The notes under the pieces are model-generated. The model saw only the letters and a list, made by a program, of their open reading frames with translations. It was not told the origin of the DNA and made no database searches. The position numbers were made by a program, and so were the translations under genes. 36,266 nucleotides of DNA, taken from the IMG/VR virus record IMGVR_UViG_2529292919_000024; one strand, written 5' to 3'. This document shows positions 3,630 through 36,266 of the stretch, one piece after another. The stretch's first letter is position 1. Every line of letters starts with the position of its first letter. The DNA is from a virus (taxonomy: Duplodnaviria > Heunggongvirae > Uroviricota > Caudoviricetes).

Positions 3630-5039
3630 TTAAACACTCCCCACGTTGTACCATATTCCCCCAATCAATTTCTGAATTGGCCTTCTGGCAACAGTGTCGA
3701 CAAGATCATCCGCATTGCCGTTAATTGCGGCTGTTAAAACATAACCTGACGCATCGCCAAAGCCGTAGTCGCGCCATACGTTTTTATATTCAATGCTGCC
3801 AAGACGAATATCCCGAACGACATGATTATGCAGCCATGTGCTTAACCAGTTGTTTTCCCACACTGAACCATAAATATCGCCATTAGACGCAACTTGCGCA
3901 CCACTTCCCAGAGCGAAACCGCCATCCCTTTTAAAGATGAAGTCACCACCACCATCTGAACCGTTATTAATATGAACACCATCACCACCGTTATCTTTCC
4001 ACAAAAACATACGAATACTTCCGTCTTCGTTGGTGAATGTAATGTGGTGGCGGTAATTACTTTTTAATCTAAAACTGCTGCAATTAGATTCAATATCTTT
4101 ATAAAGATGTAATCCTAACCCATCAATATGTCCGATGCGCGAACCATTTGAATAGAAGCTAATAATACCATCTCCATCTTGCCTAAATCCGGTGTCGTTA
4201 TCTCCCAGAACAATGGAGTTTTCACCCAGTGCGTTATCAGTAGCACCAATAGCTAGACCTCCTTCAATTTTGGCCCCGTGGCTGACATATATAGCACCTG
4301 TTCTCAGATTTATAGCGAATGGCCTTAATGGGCCGATATCACCGTTTTCGCCTTGTCCTTCAGCCGTCGGAATGAAATGAAGAAAATCTTCTGAACGACG
4401 GAAAATAAGACCGAAGGCATCATTGAAAATTCGCAGCGCATTCACCGTGCCAATTTTCAGTTCTCCGGTCATTTTATCGCCGGAACGCTGAACGGCGTTA
4501 CCAGCCTTGTTTACCGTTTCCTGTAAACCGACGTTTTGGATAAACAGCGGCTTATTGGGAATATCTGCTCCGTTCCGGTCTTTTGCCAGACGGGCATTGG
4601 CATTATCCATCGCAATTTTCACCGCTTTTGCGGTGGCTGCCAGCGTTTCACTGGGGCTGTCAGTGGCACTGGTTAGCTGAACGAGTCCTTTTTTGTTCAG
4701 GCTGGCATCATAGATATCCAGATTTTCACGTGCTGTACGCTGTGCTGATACCCCGGCAATTTTAATTTCGCTGAGGTTATTTTTTATCAGCAGCGCGTTC
4801 TTGTTCATGATGGCTTTAATGGACAGTGCAAGCTGGTTTAATTTTGTTTTATCCGGTTGAATACCGGCTTCTTCCAGCGTGTTTAATAACTCCGCCTGCA
4901 CAATATTAAACCAGTCCATGCCGGGCCATGTGATAACATTATTCCCGTCACCTTCTGAAAACCAGCGAACGATAGCACTACGCTGGGCGGATACGGGCGG
5001 CATGACGGTTACGCCGCTGTCGTTATCAATATAAAACAT
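3630..5039 (-). CDS. S: Tail fibre protein S (constant Sc plus variable Sv)
   Basis: 469-aa ORF. The gix site lies inside it at 4518..4543, dividing a constant N-terminal part of about 165 aa from the variable part. Glycine-rich, fibre-like composition. Confidence 0.88.
4510..4543. repeat. gix inversion site / 34-bp inverted repeat (inside S)
   Basis: Reverse complement of 1566..1599 with one mismatch in the core and one outside; the central TC crossover dinucleotide is conserved. Confidence 0.9.
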
Positions 5040-16375: not shown

Positions 16376-16409
16376 AACACATGCTCCTCCTTTTCCTTTA
16401 AATCAGGTT

Positions 16410-16433
16410 AAAAGGCGGTCTGAACCGCCTTTT
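16410..16433. terminator. Intrinsic terminator hairpin downstream of the major head gene
   Basis: AAAAGGCGGT-CTGA-ACCGCCTTTT: a GC-rich stem flanked by an A run and a T run, so it works in either direction. It sits 8 nt after the T stop. Confidence 0.65.
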
Positions 16434-16441
16434 AATGACGG

Positions 16442-27714: not shown

Positions 27715-28262
27715 TGTGCCATCCTCCGCGTCTTTCTGGCATGGGCATAAGCCGCCGTCATGGCATCATAGCCGCGCAGTTCACGACCGGACGGACTGAC
27801 CGGCAATGGAAGCCCGTGACGGGAAAAGGCTTCACGAATACAGCGGATGTGCCACTGCTTGAGTGTTTCGAGGACTGTCAGCAGCGTGTCGCCATGACAC
27901 CACGCCAGTGTGGAAACGCCCTGTCCGCCGTTGCGTTTCGCGGTCAGGCGCTGAACATATTTATCCAGCGCCACATCACCGCCATCGGTAATAAAACCGT
28001 CTTCTGCCATCTGCTGCCAGACTTTGTACACCTTCTCGCGGGGCGTGACATGTTCCTTAAAGCGGCGACGTGGATGTTTATTCAGCTTCTTAAAGCCGCG
28101 TTCTTTCATTGCATCGAGCGTCTGTTCCAGTTGCGTAACCGTCAGCTCGCGGCAACTGGTTTTGCCCGTTTTCTGCATCAGAAAGGCGCGGTAAGTGTCA
28201 TCGTCGAGTTGTAGCTCCCGACGGGCGACATGGATTAATTTAATAAGCGATGTGCGATTCAT
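27711..28262 (-). CDS. gemA: GemA (gene expression modulation protein)
   Basis: 183 aa from the ATG at 28262 (MNRTSLIKLIHVARREL...), with ATGA overlap to mor. The ORF-track extension to 28430 is non-coding. Confidence 0.8.
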   Translation of the reverse strand: MNRTSLIKLIHVARRELQLDDDTYRAFLMQKTGKTSCRELTVTQLEQTLDAMKERGFKKLNKHPRRRFKEHVTPREKVYKVWQQMAEDGFITDGGDVALDKYVQRLTAKRNGGQGVSTLAWCHGDTLLTVLETLKQWHIRCIREAFSRHGLPLPVSPSGRELRGYDAMTAAYAHARKTRRMAQ

Positions 28263-28292
28263 TTGCTCACCTCTCATATTAAGGAATGAGAT

Positions 28293-28709
28293 ATGAAAAT
28301 TGATTATGACGAGATAGCCAGAATATTTGATGTTTTTCTGGAGGCCGACACCGCATTCATTCGACTGGAAGATGTCGGCTGGGATCGTTCTCAGCGGCAC
28401 AGCGACAGCCATCAGAAGCTGGTTTTCCATCTTCTGTTGCTGGTTGAAAATGGTTTTATCAGCAACAGATATCTGGAAACAGGCACCGCAAAAAGCATTG
28501 GTCTCACCCCAACAAGCCTCGGATATTCATATTCAGGCACCAGTGTCAGACTCACACAAGATGGTCATGATTTTGCGAAAGCACTACATCAAAAACCAAT
28601 TCTTGAGCGCATAAAACAGGACCTTGCCGACGCCCCGATGACGCTCGTAACAGACGTCGGCAAACAGTGGTTAACCTCGTTTCTTAAAAAGAAACTCGGG
28701 ATTGAATAG
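28293..28709 (+). CDS. Opposite-strand hypothetical protein, DUF2513-like small winged-helix-type protein (candidate moron/accessory gene)
   Basis: 138-aa ORF with a strong RBS (AAGGAATGAGAT then ATG) and protein-like composition. It is the only plus-strand gene between c and the G segment. It diverges from gemA with 30 bp between the starts and overlaps the upstream early gene's 3' end convergently by 39 nt. Confidence 0.65.
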   Translation: MKIDYDEIARIFDVFLEADTAFIRLEDVGWDRSQRHSDSHQKLVFHLLLLVENGFISNRYLETGTAKSIGLTPTSLGYSYSGTSVRLTQDGHDFAKALHQKPILERIKQDLADAPMTLVTDVGKQWLTSFLKKKLGIE

Positions 28710-28982
28710 TTCCCGGTTCATACGTTGCAGCACATCAAGGGCGGCGACAGCCGCCACTTTATCGTTACCATCAGCAATAGTGCGGAGATTTTCAATAATC
28801 CAGTGAGGACTCAGTGACTCAGCAATAATGCCAAACCGGTACGCCATGACTTCATCAATAGCTTTTTCATGAGACGGCTCATATACAAAATTCACAAAGT
28901 CATGCACTTCTTTTTTCGGCAAACCACCGGCAATCAGCAGGGCGGCAAGCTCTTCTGATTTTGAAAATACACCATTATTCAT
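28671..28982 (-). CDS. Hypothetical early protein (Mu gp15-position)
   Basis: 103 aa from the ATG at 28982, which has an AAGGTGAG Shine-Dalgarno sequence. The ORF-track GTG at 28997 is a short extension. Confidence 0.6.
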   Translation of the reverse strand: MNNGVFSKSEELAALLIAGGLPKKEVHDFVNFVYEPSHEKAIDEVMAYRFGIIAESLSPHWIIENLRTIADGNDKVAAVAALDVLQRMNRELFNPEFLFKKRG

Positions 28983-32361: not shown

Positions 32362-33300
32362 TTAATTACGCAGCAGCGTTGAAATATCAACGTCCAGGTC
32401 TAATTCACGGAAAGCCTGACGCAGATAATCTTCGTTAACACGCTCACCTTTACCGTGAGCCGTCATGGCGGCAAGGCGAAGTGAATGATTCAGAATACGA
32501 AGCGCACCTGGTTTCTGCGCAATCTGCTGTAATAACTCCAGTTCTTTTTCGCCGTTAATCTGCCAGGCATCCGCAATAGCTTTTACATCGGCTTTTTTGG
32601 TTTTATTAATTGCAGTGCGCTTTGCAATACGGGAAAACAGACGGGCAAATTCAACCGTTCTGTTACCCCCCGTCATATTTGAATAAACCCGGTGATTTCC
32701 CATCAGCACAAGGCCAATACGGGTTGATTCCTGTAACAGGCGGAGTTCTTCCAGAACTTCGGCACCAAGATGATCAGCTTCGTCGATGATAACCAGCCCC
32801 TGTGTACCTTCAAGGCGACGTCGCAGGGCGCGGGAGAGCGGCCCTTTACGGCGTGGTGCGTCATTCATTCCCAGCTCAAACGCCAGTTCAGTAAGACATT
32901 CCAGAACGCTGGCACAGGATGGCGTAATGGTGATCATCCAGACATTGTTATTGGTGCGGCGATATTCACGGGCCGCTTCGGTTTTGCCCACACCAGGATT
33001 GCCACATACAACAGCAATACTTTCAGTCAGGCTGGCAAAACGCATACTTGTCCAGATTTGTTTTACCGTCTGCGTTTCCACAAAGCGGGGCGGTTCAGGT
33101 AGTTCTGCAACTGCATGATATTTTTCCAGCCAGCGTTGCAGAATTTGTGAAACACGCTCGTTATCCCCGTTGTACTTATCATTGATAAAACTACTGATAG
33201 TTCCGGTAGAAAGTCCGCTCTCAAGAGCAATTTGTTTAAAGGTGGTTTCTTCATTTTCTACAAGCGTGCGCAGTCCTGCGCGAATATCGGAAATATTCAT
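32362..33300 (-). CDS. B: Transposition target-capture ATPase B
   Basis: 312 aa with an N-terminal HTH and a Walker A motif (GNPGVGKT); directly after A. Confidence 0.93.
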   Translation of the reverse strand: MNISDIRAGLRTLVENEETTFKQIALESGLSTGTISSFINDKYNGDNERVSQILQRWLEKYHAVAELPEPPRFVETQTVKQIWTSMRFASLTESIAVVCGNPGVGKTEAAREYRRTNNNVWMITITPSCASVLECLTELAFELGMNDAPRRKGPLSRALRRRLEGTQGLVIIDEADHLGAEVLEELRLLQESTRIGLVLMGNHRVYSNMTGGNRTVEFARLFSRIAKRTAINKTKKADVKAIADAWQINGEKELELLQQIAQKPGALRILNHSLRLAAMTAHGKGERVNEDYLRQAFRELDLDVDISTLLRN

Positions 33301-33338: not shown

Positions 33339-35327
33339 TTAAATGGCTTTTTTACGTCTGTTCTGTTCCAGAATATCCAGCGAATGATTCAGATATTCAT
33401 CACGCTCAGTTTCGTATTCATCATCACGCTCCTGATTCTTCACCCGTTCCGTATTACCGGAAGGCCGGAAAATACCAACAATTCGTGATTCTGGTGCTGC
33501 TGGTTCGGCTATCTGCGGCAGCAGTTCAGCAACTTCCAGCGCGTCCATTTGTTTCTGCGCCTTAATGGCTGCTTTAGTTGCAGATTTCAGTTGTTTCTGG
33601 CGGCGGCGATATTCACGGCCTGCCGCAGCATCATTAAATGCAACAGGTGCCAGACATTCCGCTTCACAGATAAACCGACCGTCCAGGGTGTAACAATAAA
33701 CCGTGCTGTGTAGCTGCTGCGGATCAAACCTGACCACAACTTTTTTCACGCCGGCATTCATTAATGCCATGTTGTAATAAACGTTTTTCGCGCCTTTAAG
33801 GGAGCCGCCAACTTTAAGCGTAAACTCGCCTTTGCGTGAAACGTTCACCGCCTCGGCAGGCAGTAACAGCATCCGTTTTTGTTCTTCGGTTGGCTTACGC
33901 ACAATCGTTCTGGCGTATTCACGCTCGAAAACATCATCAAACGAGAGTTTGCCCCCGCACATTTCTGTTTCACGGCCTGTTCTGGCATTGAACATCGCCA
34001 CACCTTCGGCAAGGGTTTTCAGAAACAGCTCTGCATCAACAGCGCGGTTGCCATAGTTATCAGGTTTTGCCTGCGGATTTGGCCCCGTATATGCGCCAGC
34101 CAGTGCCGGATGCTTATCAACGTATTCCTCAAGCCCACCAACACCGAAAGCACGTTCAACAGGTTTTGCCTGGCCCCAGCCTTTACCGGCAACAACGCTT
34201 GTCCAGTGCATTTTCGCACCCATCAGTAAAAACAATCCCTTTGGATCGTCTTCTTTCACCTTAAAGCGGTAGCGATTGGGCGCGCCTCCCGTCAGCCATT
34301 TATTCGCAGCACCACGGGTGTTATCAATGGTGATGTGAAAATCCTCCGGGATACCGTAGCGAGTCACAACATCCATGAACGAGAGGCGAATTGAATCAAT
34401 GTTCTCGCTCACATCGCAGCGCCAGCCCAGAATTTTTCGGGTTTTCACATCCTGCCAGAACCATGTTTTCGGGCGGATCACATCACCGTTAAACCAGCGT
34501 ACAAAGACGTTATGCAGATAACCGTCGCCGTTGATCCACTGCAAGGCGTCCAGGTGTTCCACAGTTCGCTGCTGTGCCGGTATCAGATGCATCAGTGCAT
34601 GTTCACCTTCACGACAGGCAACAACCATTGCCTCGTCCAGTTGCTGAATCCGGCGAAAGGCCGTGGCACGGGAGGGAATACTCCAGCCATGCTCGCGGGC
34701 TGCCAGTTCCAGACGCTCATAACATTTGCGGAAGGCGGGTTTTTCCGGTCGCAGATAATCTGCAATCAGAAACTGCCAGGCATCCTCGTCAAATTCACTT
34801 TTGTGAACATTGCGACGGGATGCACCACGTCCATCAACAAGTGCAGCCGCCCAGTCAGGCTTCGCAAACTTCTGTACCTGGTAATACTTGTCCCGCAAAG
34901 TGGATGCGCTGATCTGGTAATGCCCTGCAACGGTCGCAAAAGCCGTTTTCGTTGAAATCCCCTGGTTCAGCATTTCGTCTGCAGCCTGAACCGCAGGCAA
35001 CCATTTTTCAGCAAGTCTGCGCTGGGAATCGCTGGCTTTATCCCATTTGCTCCACAGCACCTCACGATCATAATCATGGGCTTCCAGCGTGGGGCGGGCG
35101 ATTTCAAAACGGCCCAGGCTTGTTTCAATTCTCCCTTGTTGCAACAGAATTTCAGCACGTAATGCGACAGGGAATGATTTGATATTGAATTCAAATGATA
35201 CACCTTTAGTCCCTGCAACCTGCCTGAACTCCCAGCCTTCTCTTTGTGCCTTACGTGTAATGTTAGTGGCTTGCTTTGGTAAACCTGCCAAACCGAGCAA
35301 CTCTTTTGCTGTATACCATTCTTTCAT
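33339..35327 (-). CDS. A: DDE transposase A
   Basis: 662 aa. From about residue 60 it matches MuA as recalled ([15 protein letters not shown]...) and ends ...NRRKKAI. The N-terminal roughly 60 aa differ from Mu, as described for D108. Confidence 0.95.
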
Positions 35328-35334
35328 AGCGCAC

Positions 35335-35556
35335 CTAGTATCGAGACGGCCAAATATCTTGCGGTGTCATTCCCAGTGCATCTGCAATGATTTTCTCCGC
35401 TTTCGGATATCTCTTATCCAAAGCATTTTTTAATGTTGAAGACGAAAGATGATTAGATCTTCCCAATTCAGCTAGTGACATATTGCGTTTTCGTAGCTCT
35501 GCAACGATGTCAGCTCTGTGCCAATCTTGGCGGTTAGTTCTTTTATTCATATGCAT
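35335..35556 (-). CDS. ner: Ner early-region repressor (Cro-like)
   Basis: 73-aa HTH protein, the size of D108 Ner (Mu Ner is 75 aa), directly upstream of A. Confidence 0.88.
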
Positions 35557-35741
35557 TTCATGTAATCCTTTCAGATTCCCCCGTGAGCTACGCTATAAAG
35601 TAGCTCACGGCATATCGTGCAATGTAGTGTGGAATCACTTTCAAATCAATAGTGATTTGAAAGGATTTGCCATGATTTCATATAACAGCATGATTTTTAT
35701 ATGAATTTATTTTGTCTCTATTGAAATCACTAGGATTTTAA
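35557..35741. promoter_or_regulatory. Immunity/operator region between ner and c (divergent Pe and Pc, Ner and repressor operators)
   Basis: A perfect 11-bp inverted repeat CCGTGAGCTAC with an 8-bp AT spacer lies at 35581..35610. A second dyad, CTTTCAAATCA-ATAG-TGATTTGAAAG, lies at 35638..35663. There are also AT-rich -10/-35-like hexamers on both strands. Confidence 0.7.
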
Positions 35742-36266
35742 ATGATGTCTTTTGAAATCAAAGAATGGTTTAATGCGAAAGAGCTGGAAGGGATGCCTGG
35801 TGTACCAAAGTTGGCGACTAACATTACCAGGAAAGCTGTGGCGGAAGATTGGGTAAAACGTCAGCGTCACGGTGGGAAAGGTGTCGCTTATGAGTATCAC
35901 ATCAACAGTCTGCCAGAAGAAACACGCAGGGCCATTAAAGGAGCCTCACTTTCTGATAAACCAGTGCATACATCAATCGCCCATACAGTTGATGAGAGGC
36001 TAATTTATGCAATGAGCTTCTTAACACCAGATGAGCAGGCCGCAGCTGTGGAGATCATTCGTGTGGCAGGGATTAAAGGACTTATGCCTACAATTGTCAG
36101 TAAAGATAAGGCATTAGAGGCATTAGGGATTACTGTGGAGCAACAGAAAACCCTGCAAACTCTTCAGGCATTACCACCGGAAAAAGTGAGAGAGATTTTG
36201 TCTCAGTATGAAGGCAAAGAACATAATTTCCCTGTAAGAGAAAACGATGTAAAGAAAGCTGTATAA
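35742..36266 (+). CDS. c: Lysogeny repressor c (D108-type)
   Basis: 174-aa ORF divergent from ner. Its N-terminal DNA-binding domain is homologous to the transposase N-terminus (compare [18 protein letters not shown] with [18 protein letters not shown]). Ends ...KKAV. Confidence 0.85.
   Translation: MMSFEIKEWFNAKELEGMPGVPKLATNITRKAVAEDWVKRQRHGGKGVAYEYHINSLPEETRRAIKGASLSDKPVHTSIAHTVDERLIYAMSFLTPDEQAAAVEIIRVAGIKGLMPTIVSKDKALEALGITVEQQKTLQTLQALPPEKVREILSQYEGKEHNFPVRENDVKKAV

Follow-up and report, generated by a model that had tools for sequence, protein, structure and literature searches.

In Mu-type phages, immunity specificity is set by the c repressor and its operators, of which D108 has two and Mu has three. 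The D108 control region was reportedly sequenced in 1986, with footprinting of Ner, c, and IHF carried out from 1985 to 1992; its two c operators are said to flank an IHF site, and IHF acts on the D108 early promoter. In Tolias & DuBow 1985 and Kukolj et al. 1989, the D108 Ner footprint was reportedly described as two perfect 11-bp inverted repeats lying 8 bp apart, and Benevides et al. 1994 are said to refer to a "61-base-pair operator" of D108 Ner. Full-text searches of the literature found no paper quoting the D108 operator sequence. [quoted passage not shown] A chromosomal homologue of Ner, EnrR, binds as two monomers placed side by side on a short palindrome, the compact CTATAG, and expression of EnrR in E. 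coli BL21 leads to lysis and the release of a D108-like Mu phage (PMC9023278). A Ner-like protein that shuts off the synthesis of repressor would be compatible with this EnrR-induced lysis.

The window (the whole 36,266-bp stretch of viral DNA analysed here) is, judged by its sequence, a D108-like phage or prophage of the Mu family, and its ner-c spacer is the known lysis/lysogeny control region. Along its entire length, the window aligns collinearly with D108 nt 340-36636 in reverse complement, at 93-98% identity (97-98% overall), with window position x corresponding to D108 nt 36606 - x. In the ner-c control region, identity is 99.1% to D108 (GQ357916 / NC_013594), 99.2% to "Mu_3F6", and 86% to Shigella phage SfMu. 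The only stretches that are not collinear with D108 or not closely similar to it are 3684-4489, which is part of the invertible G segment (the S' variable part), and 28262-28973, which is the gap between gene 14 and gemA. Neither phage end lies in the window. The same ner-c module is present in 45 complete E. coli chromosomes; since a host fimbrial gene begins ~360 bp past c in one of them, these copies are prophages.

An initial annotation of this DNA had placed an operator region between ner and c at 35557-35741, and these positions prove to be exactly the 185-bp spacer of the two divergent genes. The spacer and its surroundings contain the following features.

33339..35327, minus strand: transposase A, downstream of ner and followed by B at 32362..33300
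35335..35556, minus strand: ner, 73 aa (Pfam HTH_35, 1.2e-28), 73/73 residues (100%) identical to D108 Ner
35581..35610, no strand assigned: Ner operator dyad (dyad 1), D108 nt 1025-996, at about +5..+34 of the predicted Pe and ending 25 bp from the ner ATG
35621..35649, minus strand: predicted early promoter Pe, with -35 TTGATT (35649-35644), 17 bp, and -10 TACATT (35626-35621); inferred +1 near 35614
35630..35760, no strand assigned: array of TGATTT-type repeats at 35653(+), 35648(-), 35673(+), 35691(+), 35729(-), and 35760(-)
35638..35663, no strand assigned: dyad 2, D108 nt 968-943, two inverted TGATTT-type repeats; proposed O2 and transposase (enhancer) site
35683..35713, minus strand: IHF-like site, a consensus-level prediction, with core AATCATGCTGTTA (35695-35683) matching WATCAANNNNTTR at 12/13 positions and preceded by a 94% A+T tract
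35742..36266, plus strand: c repressor gene, 174 aa (Pfam HTH_Tnp_Mu_1, 3.2e-51), 172/174 residues (99%) identical to D108 c

Ner is homologous to EnrR (7f9h) and Mu Ner (1neq/1ner). The c gene, whose stop codon ends on the last base of the window, encodes an N-terminus that matches both the N-terminal DNA-binding domain of MuA (1tns) and the DNA-binding domain of the Mu repressor (1g4d). The Mu DNA-binding domain PF02316 is common to c and transposase A, and the first 60 residues of transposase A are 55% identical to c residues 6-65; given N-termini this similar, transposase A probably uses the same DNA sites as c. A 27-nt inverted repeat (35301-35327 / 35757-35783, 81% complementary) that spans the spacer is the DNA trace of these homologous A and c N-termini, with IKEWFNAKEL as one of the two peptides.

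Two observations concern the integrity of c in relatives of the window. Codon 50 (window 35889), which lies within the repressor DNA-binding domain, reads Asn50 in the D108 reference, Tyr in the window and in the other 10 D108-type sequences compared, and Tyr or Phe in homologues; the laboratory D108 that was sequenced may have a mutant repressor at this codon, e.g. a cts allele. The E. coli elppa5 prophage has an extra T beside dyad 2, the annotation of its c covers no more than 429 nt beginning at an internal start, and its repressor may be damaged.

Both dyads reported earlier for the spacer were recovered by a repeat search. The arms of dyad 1, CCGTGAGCTAC (35581-35591) and GTAGCTCACGG (35600-35610), are 11 nt long, 100% complementary, and 8 nt apart, with GCTATAAA as the 8-bp spacer between them. 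Those of dyad 2, CTTTCAAATCA (35638-35648) and TGATTTGAAAG (35653-35663), are likewise 11 nt long and 100% complementary and lie 4 nt apart around ATAG. When the full 36,266 bp were scanned exhaustively for perfect inverted repeats (arms >=11, spacer <=12), only three turned up, namely dyad 1, dyad 2, and a terminator hairpin at 16408-16435. Among 20,000 dinucleotide-preserving shuffles of the 185-bp spacer, 18 gave even one such repeat; together, the whole-window scan and the shuffles rule out a chance origin of the dyads. The half-site GTGAGCTAC has exact matches in the window at the two dyad 1 arms only. The hairpin at 16408-16435, TTAAAAGGCGGT-CTGA-ACCGCCTTTTAA, corresponds to the annotated terminator after the D108 major head gene T.

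Dyad 1 had been likened to the Ner operator of D108, and the D108 sequence bears this out: the 30 bp are identical to D108 GQ357916 nt 996-1025, the dyad lies at the homologous position, and identity is 100% throughout 35520-35637, dyad 1 and its surroundings included. The accompanying remark that it differs from the Mu Ner site was also right, as the same place in Mu holds TAGCTAAGT-TTTTAC-ACTTAGTTA. Dyad 1 is very probably the D108 Ner operator. We take it to be the operator that was reportedly footprinted, the arms and spacer fitting the description of that footprint.

Comparison with related phages indicates which parts of dyad 1 matter. SfMu, whose Ner is 98.6% identical, has both arms unchanged and a spacer that differs at 3/8 positions, and the core TGAGCTAC-N8-GTAGCTCA occupies this position both in SfMu and in the Vibrio phage martha 12B12. 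In martha, where Ner is 65% identical, the N8 differs and most of the remaining spacer has diverged, while the distance from ner is the same. PhiR68_1 (Ner 64% identical) carries a symmetric double change, TCAGCTAC-N8-GTAGCTGA, and some relatives have T-to-C at 35584. What is conserved in dyad 1 is the pair of outer arms, with 8 bp between them. Recognition in the manner of EnrR, through the CTATAA at the centre, was considered and rejected, the centre being not conserved in SfMu, martha, or PhiR68_1.

Scanning IMG/VR with the pattern TSAGCTAC-N8-GTAGCTSA yielded 55 matches, 14 of which adjoin a Ner homologue; all 14 are symmetric, with 27-28 bp from the Ner start to the 8-bp core, and none of the 24 asymmetric matches adjoins Ner (Fisher p = 8e-5). 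The other 41/55 matches to this relaxed pattern have no nearby Ner and are mostly chance occurrences, as expected from its information content. The G form of the dyad accompanies Ner of the D108/martha type and the C form Ner of the PhiR68_1 type, five IMG/VR contigs having the PhiR68_1 form. In a public genome-contig collection, no match to the exact Ner dyad and no relatives of c were found.

Upstream of dyad 1 in the direction of ner transcription lies the predicted Pe, which scores 12.5 in a sigma-70 PWM scan, the window maximum, and is a consensus-level prediction. When checked against Mu, the PWM scan picks TTTACA/17/TATCTT, presumably in agreement with the mapped Mu Pe start at nt 1028. 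The built-in promoter scan (9-of-12 threshold) missed Pe and listed one weak plus-strand site. Homologous TTGATT/17/TAxxxT elements are present in SfMu, martha, and Mannheimia phage 3927AP2, and both Pe hexamers are invariant in 16 distinct D108-type sequences. For Pc, reading by hand gave TTCAGA/18/TATAAA, whose -10 falls within the Ner spacer; this was rejected since neither SfMu nor martha keeps it. PWM candidates for Pc reached 8.3-8.6 at best, none of them convincing.

The martha early region aligns with that of D108 across the promoter, dyad 2, and the Ner dyad. Relative to the predicted Pe +1, the layout is constant across six phages, with the elements at the positions listed here.

Dyad 1 of the window: +5..+34, centre +18.5
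Dyad 2 of the window: -49..-24, centre -36.5, over the -35 hexamer
Ner-type dyad in the six phages: centre +15.5 to +20.5
Dyad over the -35 in the six phages: centre -30.5 to -36.5
IHF-like core: -75 in the window, SfMu, and Mu; -85 in Mannheimia; -86 in martha

A Ner dyad at ~+18, a dyad at the -35, and IHF at -75 or -86 would form a fixed architecture extending from phages of Enterobacteriaceae to those of Vibrio and Pasteurellaceae.

Dyad 2 covers the -35 hexamer of the predicted Pe, the top-scoring promoter of the window, and belongs to a dense cluster of repeats. TGATTT occurs six times in 35621-35770 (150 bp), compared with 0.85 times in dinucleotide shuffles, 0/5000 of which reach six, and with 0.19 per 150 bp elsewhere in the window; degenerate copies lie at 35637-35630(-) and 35734(+). 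In martha and Mannheimia phage 3927AP2, AAATCA-CTAT-TGATTT is centred at -36.5 and accompanied by further TGATTT copies. The arm distal to the promoter (AAATCA) is kept in D108, martha, and the Mannheimia phage, and between the window and martha the symmetry of dyad 2 is kept through a C:G to G:C swap. In PhiR68_1, the repeats read TGTATTCA/TGAATACA in place of TGATTTCA, and the dyad changes along with the repeat. The PhiR68_1 region concerned (nt 490-700) apparently represents, among E. coli Mu-like phages, a third type of specificity.

The repressors of these phages resemble c to different degrees: over the first ~70 residues, the N-terminal domain is 43% identical to that of c in martha, 55% in the Mannheimia phage, 57% in PhiR68_1, and 29% in Mu, and a 54-residue BLASTP core of the martha repressor is 54% identical to c residues 6-59. 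Martha and the Mannheimia phage, where AAATCA-CTAT-TGATTT is kept, have domains moderately similar to that of c. The martha protein has a Mu-type N-terminal DNA-binding domain; its record annotates it as LexA family.

The perfect symmetry of dyad 2 was found in only 5/20 of the D108-type sequences examined. In D108 it is 9/11, with the left arm TTTTTAAATCA, and SfMu has TTTTGGAATCA. Since the outer parts differ freely from one natural D108-type prophage to another and D108 is at 9/11, the 11-bp symmetry is not required; its 11/11 perfection is, on this comparison, an allele feature, AAATCA-N4-TGATTT being the unit that is conserved. Dyad 2 was also compared by eye with a Fur box; 9/19 positions matched, and that candidate was dropped.

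The repeats and the overlap with the predicted -35 suggest that dyad 2 is most likely a c-repressor operator, O2, doubling as a transposase enhancer site; by analogy with Mu, its repeats probably serve the transposase too. The proposed boundaries of the operators, 35630-35680 for O2 and 35716-35760 for O1, are inferred. The earlier description of dyad 2 as a candidate "repressor or host-factor site" accordingly fares differently in its two halves: the repressor half is favoured by the repeats and the overlap with the predicted -35, and the host-factor half, as far as IHF is concerned, is not, dyad 2 having no match to the IHF consensus at <=1 mismatch. Similarly, the suggestion that the two dyads together define the immunity of the prophage applies to c and its operators, the Ner operator representing a separate specificity that is not immunity proper.

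A better candidate for IHF lies nearby. The core of the IHF-like site is centred at ~-75 from the predicted Pe +1, as is the perfect consensus TATCAACGCGTTA of Mu (at -75), and the cores in martha and the Mannheimia phage are also perfect consensus matches; in PhiR68_1, no IHF-like core was found at <=1 mismatch. Two natural polymorphisms in the core fall on NNNN positions. A third perfect dyad, TTCATATAA-N11-TTATATGAA at 35677-35705, brackets the core.

Three other explanations of the dyads deserve consideration. That dyad 2 is a site for a host factor, IHF in particular, and not for the repressor is very improbable. The region is A+T-rich and contains AATCAA, and IHF acts on the Mu early promoter (PMC3820752); however, dyad 2 (35638-35663) has no match to WATCAANNNNTTR at <=1 mismatch, the best such site being 35683-35695 at the Mu-like -75, and dyad 2 is built from a repeat that recurs toward c. 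It is also very improbable that dyad 2 is conserved only as the Pe -35 and its upstream contacts, its symmetry being incidental and the repressor binding elsewhere in the spacer. The polymorphic outer arms would fit this, as would the inclusion of the predicted -35 TTGATT in CACTATTGATTT, the most conserved block across phages. Yet the distal AAATCA arm, without a promoter role at -40 to -49, is conserved as well, the hexamer recurs in O1-like positions beside c, the C:G to G:C swap is symmetric and maintains the dyad, and PhiR68_1 changes repeat and dyad together. Conservation of the -35 region could nonetheless partly reflect RNA polymerase rather than repressor.

The dyads might instead act mainly as RNA hairpins, with dyad 1 at the 5' end of the early transcript influencing ner stability or translation and dyad 2 in the c leader. 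The predicted leader folds into an 11-bp stem (-23.4 kcal/mol, z = -4.0), the symmetric changes in dyad 1 preserve a hairpin equally well, and both the G/C swap of PhiR68_1 and the 35584 T-to-C change, which gives a G-U pair in ner-sense RNA, keep the pairing. What speaks against a hairpin as the main function is that the 8-bp core sequence itself, not just its pairing, is kept in D108, SfMu, and the Vibrio phage amid divergence, that the dyad 1 variant tracks the type of Ner protein, and that the Mu and Mannheimia counterparts are 6-bp dyads only. D108 Ner has reportedly been footprinted on dyad 1, and since dyad 2 is located upstream of the start predicted for Pe, its transcription would depend on Pc. 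On balance this explanation is very improbable; a hairpin at dyad 1 is physically plausible, and the dyads may have a secondary role in RNA.

The reading that the ner-c spacer is an early switch, with dyad 1 as the Ner operator and dyad 2 as the c-operator O2/enhancer over Pe, is probably correct. It draws directly on the sequences, the identity with D108, the repeat statistics, and the conservation and geometry across six phages; from these we infer the promoter start, the extent of the operators, and the binder of dyad 2. In such a switch, Ner, a small Cro-like helix-turn-helix protein, would bind both CCGTGAGCTAC arms symmetrically at a site just downstream of the Pe start (+5 to +34), where Pc is also expected. 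Bound there, it would interfere with RNA polymerase at Pe and turn down early (ner-A-B) transcription as well as that of the repressor after the onset of lytic growth. Repeats of the TGATTT(G/C)AAA type would be recognised by the winged-helix N-terminal domain common to c and transposase A. In the lysogen, c on O2, cooperating with the O1 repeats and an IHF bend at about -75, would shut Pe off; during lytic growth, the same repeats would serve the transposase as a transpositional enhancer, an operator/enhancer duality known from Mu.

The segment around dyad 2 is also unusually polymorphic. Among 16 distinct D108-type sequences, 23/85 positions vary in 35631-35715, compared with 29/847 in the rest of ner-c (OR 10.5, p = 3e-12), and this variability is 2.6 times that of c third codon positions. 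Within the hotspot, the core TGATTT hexamers (mostly), the Pe hexamers, and the IHF consensus positions are spared; the core hexamers vary at 3/24 positions, compared with 20/61 elsewhere in 35631-35715. Four independent changes occurred at position 35653, two to G and two to A. Recombination contributes to the hotspot, as indicated by an SfMu-like patch in one sequence. Diversifying or tuning selection on the dyad 2/IHF-like segment in natural D108-type prophages is a tentative and rather unlikely idea; the pattern may come from relaxed constraint plus recombination, or from selection on binding affinity. If selection were at work, lineages would adjust the affinity of repressor, transposase, or IHF, and thereby induction frequency or cross-immunity, and the 11/11 dyad 2 of the window would be a higher-affinity O2 allele than that of laboratory D108.

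In a switch that is already known as a system, only the hotspot across dyad 2 and the IHF-like segment lacks an explanation, and the initial observation is correct but ordinary. The window can be described as a Mu-type element of D108 immunity whose switch is intact, with Ner, c, both dyads, and the promoter hexamers in place, a description that helps annotation and the prediction of heteroimmunity with Mu. How the mechanism is understood does not change; small additions come from the comparative geometry, the G/C swap of the Ner half-site, and the hotspot.

Among described systems, the D108 Ner operator is the closest, sharing with the window the same 30-bp sequence, position, and Ner protein and the same two 11-bp arms with an 8-bp spacer; there is no difference in the dyad itself, and the window is a natural relative. 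EnrR (PDB 7f9h/7f9i), the chromosomal Ner homologue, is the closest solved relative of the window Ner (E = 1.5e-22). Its site is the compact CTATAG, whereas in dyad 1 the spacer CTATAA is not conserved and the arms 8 bp apart are. Lambda Cro at OR is likewise a small second repressor with a site between divergent genes, where it lowers both early and repressor promoters, but neither its protein family nor the architecture of its site is related, and the likeness is a functional analogy only.

The comparison with Mu covers both dyads. The Mu Ner site, like dyad 1, is a dyad that follows directly downstream of the start of the early promoter, ~25-35 bp upstream of ner, with its centre at +15.5 compared with +18.5 in the window, and the Mu protein is a homologue (49% identity) with the same regulatory role. 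The sites differ, with CTAAGT-N6-ACTTAG inside TAGCTAAGT...ACTTAGTTA in Mu and GTGAGCTAC-N8-GTAGCTCAC in the window. Dyad 1 departs from the CTAAGT-N6-ACTTAG-type 12-bp repeats of Mu in both sequence and spacing, and the Ner specificities of Mu and the window are therefore distinct. The Mu operator doubles as the transpositional enhancer (PMC3820752). This O2/enhancer (O/E), with the Mu IHF site placed between O1 and O2, resembles the dyad 2 region in having short repeats in both orientations and a winged-helix domain common to repressor and transposase. At -75, Mu has an IHF consensus and the window a predicted IHF-like core, and the dyad over the Pe -35 is AGCTTT-ACAA-AAAGCT at -30.5 in Mu, compared with dyad 2 at -36.5. 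The repeats themselves are CTTTTYAGTAA-like in Mu and TGATTT(G/C)AAA-like in the window; this different repeat, together with no more than 29% identity between c and Mu c across the ~70 N-terminal residues aligned, fits heteroimmunity with Mu.
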